NCBI GenBank assembly: GCA_964016885.1
Contig: OZ024743.1
Location: forward strand, 225,990,001-226,054,000
Source of the DNA: Eledone cirrhosa
Taxonomy: Eukaryota
DNA length: 64,000 nt
Reading direction: 5' to 3'
Position numbers and translations under genes: made by a program
The notes under the pieces: generated by a model
The model's database searches: none
What the model was told of the DNA's origin: nothing
The model's input: the letters and a program-made list of their open reading frames with translations, nothing else
Part shown: positions 14,078-14,850 of the stretch, in pieces
Numbering within the stretch: the first letter of the stretch is position 1
Layout: the number at the start of each line of letters is the position of its first letter

Positions 14078-14850
14078 TTTATTTTGTTTTGACCTGTTTA
14101 GCTTGATTTGCTTTTTGGCCACTTTTTCAATTTTGTATGCCTTCTTAACATATTGTTTAGCTCTGGTTTTTAACTATTGAGCACTTTGCGAGTGTCATTT
14201 CTGATTTTTGCGTTTCGTTTCGCCTTTCCTACCCGCCGAAATGCGATTCTCGCTGAATCTATATTTGTATTAATCTCCCGTGTCTTACAATTAACTTGTA
14301 AATAATTTTTATTGACAGGTTAATTGTATAAGTTTATTTTAAAAACCACCCGGTTGAGAACTTATTCGATTTGTGCTATTTATGCTATTTTTTGCATACA
14401 CTTACTTAATTCTTTTACCAAAATCTGGGGTTATTTCCCCTTGTGATTTCCACACGTGGTTTAACATGCCTCTGTGTCACTCACAAATTTGGTACGGAGC
14501 AAAATGCCTGTTGATAACGTGATATTCCTTGTTCGATCATTATACCTAAAGCTTATATTTTTAAGCAGACAGTACTTTGATTTAGGTGTCATAGAAACCC
14601 TGCATTGGATTTTAACAGCAATTCCAAGGGGTCCAGGTCTGGTTTTATCATTTAATTTGTTTTGACCTGTTTAGCTTGATATGCTTTTTGGCTTAGGTGG
14701 TTGATGCTTTCTTGACCACTTTTTCATTGTTTAGCTTGACCATTGTTTAGCTCTGGTTTTTATCTATTGGGCACTTTGCCAGTGTCATTTCTGATTTTTG
14801 TATTTCATTTCGCCTTTCCTACCCGCCGAAATGCGATTCTCACTGAATCT
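14078..14850 (+). mobile_element. Unclassified structured non-coding element (~590 bp unit, 1.3 tandem copies)
   Basis: 14078-14260 repeats at ~14655-14850; collinear motif islands and hairpins shared with 45655-46235; flanked by (TA)n and (CT)n. Confidence 0.65.

Follow-up and report, generated by a model that had tools for sequence, protein, structure and literature searches.

Two copies of a repeat and their surroundings

The window, a stretch of 64,000 nucleotides from Eledone cirrhosa (positions 225,990,001 to 226,054,000 of contig OZ024743.1 in the 3.0 Gb assembly GCA_964016885.1), contains two copies of a repeat unit, A and B, the features of which are collected in Table 1. A sequence-only reading had described them as diverged copies with collinear islands, both embedded in (TA)n, and this description holds: all nine islands (9/9) are present in both copies in the same order, the homology of the copies extends over almost the entire length of the unit (E 2.4e-25 in nhmmer; 67% over 420 nt with E 2e-17 in blastn), and both loci lie within (TA)n, as found by TRF. 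Also the claim that the 14 kb locus comprises more than one unit, with the end joined to the start, is borne out, the upstream partial unit and the near-full unit being 82% identical in their overlapping parts.

Table 1. Features of the two copies, in window positions.
Feature	Position	Strand	Basis or remark
(TA)n target tract, 5' of copy A	14014..14082	.	TRF
Upstream unit, 5'-truncated (3' ~190 nt remain)	14078..14268	+	starts ~30 nt past the predicted cut site; ends at the unit end TTTGT
Near-full unit, subfamily A	14269..14849	+	final ~9 nt replaced by (TC)n/(TA)n
Long covarying hairpin, unit start	14286..14328	+	inverted match within the copy comparison; RNAalifold consensus columns 300-317/344-361
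GAGC, 5' strand of predicted stem I-II pseudoknot	14497..14500	+	covariation helix 1
Stem I, 5' strand	14506..14510	+	subfamily alignment, covariation; RNAalifold without constraint
Variant core UUGAUAA (U3 U4 G5 A6 N7 A8 A9)	14511..14517	+	110-copy alignment
Stem II domain, ~75 nt	14518..14593	+	C·A mismatch first (14518/14593), then GUGAUA/UGUCAU
GUUC, pseudoknot 3' strand in stem II internal loop	14531-14534	+	covariation
GAAA (G12-A15.1)	14594..14597	+	107, 110, 109, 109 of 110 copies
Stem III (ACCC/GGGU) bearing covarying hairpin 14605-14609/14623-14627	14597..14632	+	~50 nt longer in subfamily F
GUC triplet, predicted cleavage between 14633/14634	14631..14634	+	U16.1 105/110, C17 106/110
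Stem I, 3' strand CAGGU, predicted 5' end of cleaved monomer	14634..14638	+	subfamily alignment, covariation
GACCUG, downstream decoy competing for stem I 3' strand, copy A	14664..14669	+	alignments, folding
Conserved GCUC...GAGC hairpin, 3' domain	14750..14776	+	consensus columns 161-171/178-188; intact in upstream partial unit at 14160-14185
Copy B, one full unit of subfamily B in (TA)n	45655..46239	+	96-98% identical to best other B copies
Copy B hammerhead domain	45906..46041	+	core broken (G5 to C, TTCAGAA 45911-45917); GAAA 45998-46001; cut position 46036/46037
Decoy UACCCG, copy B	46052..46057	+	

Immediately upstream of copy A (13790-14020) lies a long near-perfect inverted repeat (~13810-14010) that looks like a head-to-head pair of short repeats. 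Copy B is directly preceded, with a short TA tract in between, by a canonical minimal-hammerhead 3' end of the type known from Penelope-like elements (PLEs; 45500-45640, core at 45521), which is probably an independent insertion. Elsewhere the window contains several L1/Tx1-like LINE copies (27564-30900 and 32533-39646), all interrupted by stops or frameshifts, one with an RT fragment confirmed by Pfam and one with a zinc-knuckle ORF1 (32533-33912), furthermore a mariner-type transposase remnant (7964-8536, Pfam HTH_48), a fragment that we take to be the 3' part of an RTE-like LINE (50321-50830), a 28-nt satellite (1-6023) and a minisatellite of 69-72 nt (20432-22838).

A large family of non-coding units

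Collecting the repeat genome-wide yields thousands of copies. Searches of the own genome gave 3,085 first-look candidates with one copy as query and 3,518 with the other (40 places scored), and further subfamilies came from flanks and from 140 stretches of ten kb at round coordinates, of which 10 lie next to the window. The sampled stretches hold 13 loci in 1.4 Mb, which corresponds very roughly to 28,000 copies, and an exact pattern of the intact core, which does not catch F, B2 and some A copies, has 4,940 matches genome-wide as compared to 0 for the reversed control pattern. Units are 583-629 nt long and fall into at least eight subfamilies, named A (three clusters), B, B2, C/C2, D, E, F and G. 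Clustering of 95 full units at 12% distance gave six groups, with three singleton clusters excluded from the comparison and F and G added later; the eight cluster consensuses of the six subfamilies compared are 51-94% identical, and subfamilies B, B2, C and G are young (97-99% identity).

That the unit has no ORF had been noted before and is confirmed, the longest ATG ORF on either strand of eight trimerised units comprising 16-95 aa and being not conserved. The GC content is 34-39%, within the range below 45% of non-LTR retrozymes, and ARAGORN found no tRNA in the unit that would make it a tRNA-derived SINE. A match to a known element was sought in Rfam, where neither copy has a match below E 2.3, be it to a hammerhead or to any other ribozyme family; for the whole window, the 150 of 220 rows listed contain only sub-threshold miRNA-type matches, which fall on TA repeats. 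Dfam or Repbase may already list the repeat under 'unknown'. Four contig runs of one study, the kind of which is unspecified, contain many unit copies, which says nothing about expression.

In subfamily E (L157, L159, L166, L168), a (TA)n tract lies in the loop right after the cut site, where it draws nested insertions and gives permuted-looking copies, and at G000:C8:56672256-56673553 a 23-nt piece of the stem III loop of subfamily F has grown into a minisatellite of ~1.3 kb. A former ORF in the variable loop after the cut was considered and rejected, the long inserts being (TA)n tracts and nested repeats.

A predicted variant hammerhead in the conserved islands

The sequence-only reading had stated that the units lack a hammerhead, and indeed CUGANGA is absent and the literal consensus C3 U4 G5 A6 N7 G8 A9 is not matched, with U3 in 110/110 copies. 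The conserved islands, however, are a predicted type I hammerhead of variant form (U3-A8 or U3·G8), as copy A possesses the core UUGAUAA, the GAAA and the GUC. The order of the elements is exactly that of a hammerhead (stem I, UUGANRA, stem II, GAAA, stem III, UC, stem I), three helices surround the core with stem I being open-ended, as in type I, and each tandem unit carries such a type I hammerhead, as do the units of non-LTR retrozymes.

The core is highly conserved among the 110 distinct aligned copies that span the hammerhead domain, many of which are close relatives and which do not include F and G: U3, A6, A9 and A13 are invariant (110/110), G5, A14 and A15.1 are found in 109/110, G12 in 107/110 and U16.1 in 105/110, position 17 is C in 106 and U in 4 and thus always H, and position 8 is A in 106 and G in 4. 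N7 takes all four bases among the 100 core matches listed. In 14 diverse representatives, 26 positions are invariant, most of them in the core and the flanking stem bases, and the 3-8 pair is kept in 14/14 (UA in 9, UG in 5) together with U4, G5, A6 and A9. Copy A has an intact core, whereas that of copy B is broken by the exchange G5C at a position that is G in 109/110 aligned copies, and it is partly because of this exchange that the hammerhead core was overlooked.

The U3-A8 combination is a natural hammerhead variant that has been reported to be active in vitro (PMC3088659), and it occurs in the minimal hammerheads of Schistosoma PLEs (PMC4209133). At the base of stem II, the pair G10.1-C11.1 is the norm, strongly but not strictly conserved, and U·U is the best-tolerated mismatch at this position (PMC3088659). 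This pair is absent from the units, which have a C·A or A·A mismatch followed by G-C or G-U, with an A on the 3' side in 109/110 copies, and the activity may therefore be low.

It has been suggested from the sequence that the unit is possibly a different ribozyme. A different or new class with a merely coincidental likeness to hammerheads would be compatible with arm lengths far beyond the usual and with the absence of an Rfam hammerhead match, but matches to any other Rfam ribozyme family are likewise absent, the hammerhead elements occur in exact order, and a relaxed descriptor that in the 1.4 Mb sample gave 12 matches, 2 of them family copies, hit only 10 non-family sites (~0.4% per unit), which makes this reading very unlikely. 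A first, stricter version of the descriptor had no match in the same sample. Readings as twister, pistol, hatchet, hairpin or HDV ribozyme or as group I intron were dropped, as the respective pairings fail across subfamilies and have no Rfam match. Because the invariant columns are a hammerhead core with a stem II of ~75 nt, the unit is better seen as a retrozyme variant than as a member of an unknown class.

Covarying helices

The helices covary, as had been claimed. In the 14 representatives, 94.7% of 265 cells pair and double changes are found at 8/19 pairs, and the covariation score was reached by 0/500 shuffles, which ignore relatedness, for a structure that was drawn from the same sequences; slid controls pair at 26-46%. 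In an RNAalifold consensus of eight natural cut-to-cut monomers, stems I and II appear unprompted, together with the stem III hairpin and several other helices, there are double changes in 24/63 pairs, and about ten helices are kept outside the ribozyme. The hairpin on stem III covaries (UUGGA/UCCAA, CUGGA/UCCAG, CUAGA/UCUAG; columns 714-718/732-736), and so does a predicted pseudoknot of 4 bp between the sequence 5' of stem I and the internal loop of stem II (GAGC/GUUC, GAAC/GUUC, GGAA/UUCC, GGAC/GUCC), which is 92.9% paired and has double changes at 2/4 pairs, its register in the sequence alignment being displaced by one base in B2, C and C2. Such a pairing agrees with the type of pseudoknot known from PMC3088659.

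Not all of the helices that had been proposed earlier are supported. In place of the G-U-containing helix TGGATTTT/GGGGTCC, which lacks support, the covarying pairing is the hairpin UUGGA/UCCAA and its variants, with ACCC/GGGU as stem III, and the hairpins TATGC/GCATA and CCA-CACG-TGG are absent from the eight-sequence consensus fold, the first being lost in subfamily C. What remains of the earlier interpretation is an RNA of the plus strand that is structured, non-coding and mobile and the helices of which covary.

Folding of single sequences is less uniform: the minimum free energy fold of one subfamily C copy is the three-way junction, and the junction is favoured in only 2/6 isolated domains (C, C2). 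In the domain of the window A copy, stems I and III form and stem II misfolds, and the z-scores of the domains are not significant (-1.06, -0.29).

A probable downstream decoy for stem I

The earlier comparison of CAGGTC/GACCTG with CGGGTA/TACCCG was right in that this helix is real, but the same bases also are the 3' strand of hammerhead stem I, for which the downstream strand would be a decoy. A homologous decoy match is seen in the alignments of A, B, B2, C, D, E, F and G. The best downstream duplex is more stable than stem I in 12/13 copies scored, in D, F and F2 not at the homologous site, and in circular folds the probability of stem I is at most 0.04 in 6/6 monomers. Of the partners that its 3' strand finds there, the decoy is the best in A, A2, C and C2, which is not the case in B and B2. 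A kinetic window can be inferred, in which stem I would pair first during transcription and the decoy would later lock the ribozyme in an off state. Most animal retrozyme circles are described as being free of such a blocking, which viroids and plant retrozymes have (PMC7229834).

Such a lock is one of the traits that could also belong to a viroid-like circular RNA replicon that is copied from RNA to RNA as well and repeatedly written into the genome by a PLE reverse transcriptase; such a replicon would also agree with the about ten helices outside the ribozyme and with many divergent young subfamilies existing side by side. It is nevertheless very unlikely, since no minus-strand ribozyme was noted, the unit fold is branched (55-65% paired), the young subfamilies are 97-99% identical and in this differ from a quasispecies, and the core pattern has 0 matches in viral contigs. 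Four matches in metagenomes are due to chance, being GC-rich (61-68%) and without a match to the family HMM.

Insertion pattern and Penelope-like elements

The structure of the copies is that of PLE insertions. A common 3' end that leads into (TA)n is found in 196/205 matches (two queries were themselves 3' fragments), the 5' truncation varies among insertions, many of which consist of a partial unit followed by full units, an inverted 5' piece occurs at locus L071, and head-to-tail arrays reach up to 16 units with a period of 615 nt in the genome-wide core-pattern scan. A fixed 3' end, 5' truncation, partial tandems, 5' inversion and targeting of microsatellites, here (TA)n, are listed among the insertion traits of PLEs (PMC8557442), and it is likely from this pattern that the unit is moved by the PLE machinery.

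The genome is rich in young PLE ORFs, with 68 scored places at 96-100%. The link of longer copies to a PLE ORF that had been envisaged was not found, as there is no family-HMM match linked to such an ORF in the ~2 Mb examined, where few full PLE ends are readable, and an autonomous PLE with the 3' end of the unit was not found either. A young PLE of 828 aa ends 3' in an AT-rich repeat and possesses a hammerhead of its own with a canonical core, and shows no likeness to the unit. The PLE ORF of the window has no Pfam match and was identified by motifs and by Atlas neighbours with RT and GIY-YIG.

The pLTR of the young PLE (window 55020-55165, plus strand, and also L320) holds a canonical-core type I hammerhead with a stem II of ~110 nt and a palindromic GATC loop III, and long-stem-II hammerheads thus exist also in autonomous PLEs of this genome. 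In the window, remains of the young PLE ORF lie at 52038-54472 on the minus strand, the pLTR hammerhead being inverted with respect to this ORF. In another PLE family (L291), the 3' UTR contains, 3' of the endonuclease region, a minimal hammerhead that has a U3-A8 core, and a further family with a hammerhead (L136, L090, L099) has a stem II that in L136 opens with a U·U mismatch. At 51113-51502 and in L319, a PLE 3' UTR decays into an AT-rich tandem with a period of ~108 nt.

The 5' ends of insertions pile up at the predicted cut. Ends between about -5 and +45 of this position are found at 5/13 sampled loci (binomial p 0.001 under uniform truncation), in 5/22 C insertions (p 0.019 under uniform truncation; 23 were found with a 3'-end query, one of which runs off its locus) and in 9/13 G insertions (p 7e-8), a set that is conditioned by its query. 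L151 begins at the predicted cut and L157 one base before. This fits a reverse transcription that would run off a cleaved end. The pile-up region is also an AT-rich loop (68-85% AT), and microhomology with (TA)n could produce the same pile-up, as at TTATAG in subfamily B, where a separate hotspot of 5' ends exists. Most C insertions read through the cut site, and their template must therefore have been ligated or uncut. Private variants are common to the units within one insertion, as would result if one circle were copied repeatedly or if the template were a uniform multimer; in L313 and L079, some variants are common to only part of the array.

Such partly shared variants, the reading across the cut site in most C insertions, the mismatch at the base of stem II and the weak single-sequence folding of 4/6 domains would all agree with a non-autonomous PLE derivative, in which the hammerhead would be slow or inactive alone, the fold would bind protein, and tandems would arise via linear multimers and unequal crossover without any circle; also PLE minimal hammerheads have low activity (PMC4209133). 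We consider this unlikely, because all catalytic positions are kept over ~50% divergence while N7 is free, the 3-8 pair is maintained in 14/14 representatives, and 5' ends cluster at the predicted cut.

A probable non-LTR retrozyme

Probably, then, the unit is a non-LTR retrozyme, the RNA of which is predicted to cleave itself after GUC and to be ligated to circles that a PLE reverse transcriptase likely copies into (TA)n. This RNA would be structured, plus-strand, non-coding and mobile, and it is likely circular. Transcription would read through tandem copies, probably by Pol II, because the 4-17 runs of U4+ per unit would stop Pol III. Cleavage may take place co-transcriptionally, aided by the pseudoknot between stems I and II, and a host ligase would close the monomers into circles, whereas the decoy helix, transcribed 15-90 nt later, would capture the 3' strand of stem I and keep the circle from being cut again. 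The PLE protein with its RT and GIY-YIG domains may then carry out target-primed reverse transcription at (TA)n, with priming at one fixed site ~200-250 nt 3' of the cut. If the template is a cleaved linear monomer, the enzyme would run off at the cut, giving rise to the many solo copies of 200-250 nt, whereas on a circle or an uncut multimer it would read through and generate 1.1 to 16 units.

Relation to known systems

Animal non-LTR retrozymes of coral, mussel and axolotl (PMC7229834; preprint 10.64898/2026.07.22.740005) are the closest in kind, as they share non-coding tandem units with a type I hammerhead, a GC content below 45%, the range from monomers to multimers and the co-occurrence with PLEs. 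Their units have 170-400 nt (PMC7229834) or 51-972 nt (10.64898/2026.07.22.740005) as compared to 583-629 nt here, and the present units differ by the variant core, the ~75-nt stem II and a long stable stem III. In most circles of animal retrozymes, the ribozyme is predicted to be able to fold unhindered (PMC7229834), whereas a conserved decoy helix exists here. Of nine predicted retrozyme dimers, one cleaved (1/9; 10.64898/2026.07.22.740005). With the Cercyon PLE hammerheads of Schistosoma (PMC4209133), the unit shares the U3-A8 core, an extra base after A9 and the PLE context, but those are described as minimal, without helix III, acting as dimers and having a helix II of 7-8 bp (PMC4209133), whereas here stem III is complete and stem II long and multi-loop, the A before G12 is invariant and the unit is non-coding. 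The pseudoknotted hammerheads of PMC3088659 have a Watson-Crick pseudoknot between stems I and II, such as is predicted here, and in common with the unit they show a natural U3-A8 and a mismatch at the base of stem II, yet their stems II are described as short and the mismatch is U·U. In the unit, it is C·A or A·A instead, and the predicted partner in the pseudoknot is an internal loop located ~12 nt up the long stem II. Plant LTR retrozymes and hammerhead viroids resemble the unit in their size of ~600 nt and in a ribozyme that is blocked by complementary sequence in the circle (PMC7229834); they have type III and not type I hammerheads, and the present units, in which no LTR, PBS or PPT was noted, are AU-rich and inserted in the PLE manner.

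In the literature searched, no description was found of this architecture or of cephalopod retrozymes, and the variant figures of PMC3088659 and PMC4209133 may bear on the novelty. While U3-A8 is already known, we did not find the long stem II, the C·A/A·A mismatch or the downstream helix that competes with stem I in print. It is therefore only tentatively, and at somewhat less than an even chance, that we propose an undescribed hammerhead architecture, with a U3·R8 core, a fixed C·A/A·A mismatch, a pseudoknot-docked 75-nt stem II, an expandable stem III and a conserved decoy as off-switch, which would drive a viroid-sized multi-domain circular RNA in tens of thousands of copies that descriptors and Rfam miss. 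Surveys of retrozymes and PLEs use CUGANGA descriptors with short spacers, e.g. 7-17 nt (PMC8557442), and a family such as this one would therefore be scored as free of ribozymes.

If the unit cleaves, it widens the tolerated hammerhead core and represents an animal retrozyme with a built-in off-switch, which bears on the question of how the circles of animal retrozymes avoid being cut again (PMC7229834). The young subfamilies, with their 16-unit arrays and their solo copies that terminate at the cut site, offer a genomic record for testing whether PLE reverse transcriptases copy circular templates, and if the new architecture is true, PLE-type repeats of other animals that are regarded as 'hammerhead-less' may hide such ribozymes as well.
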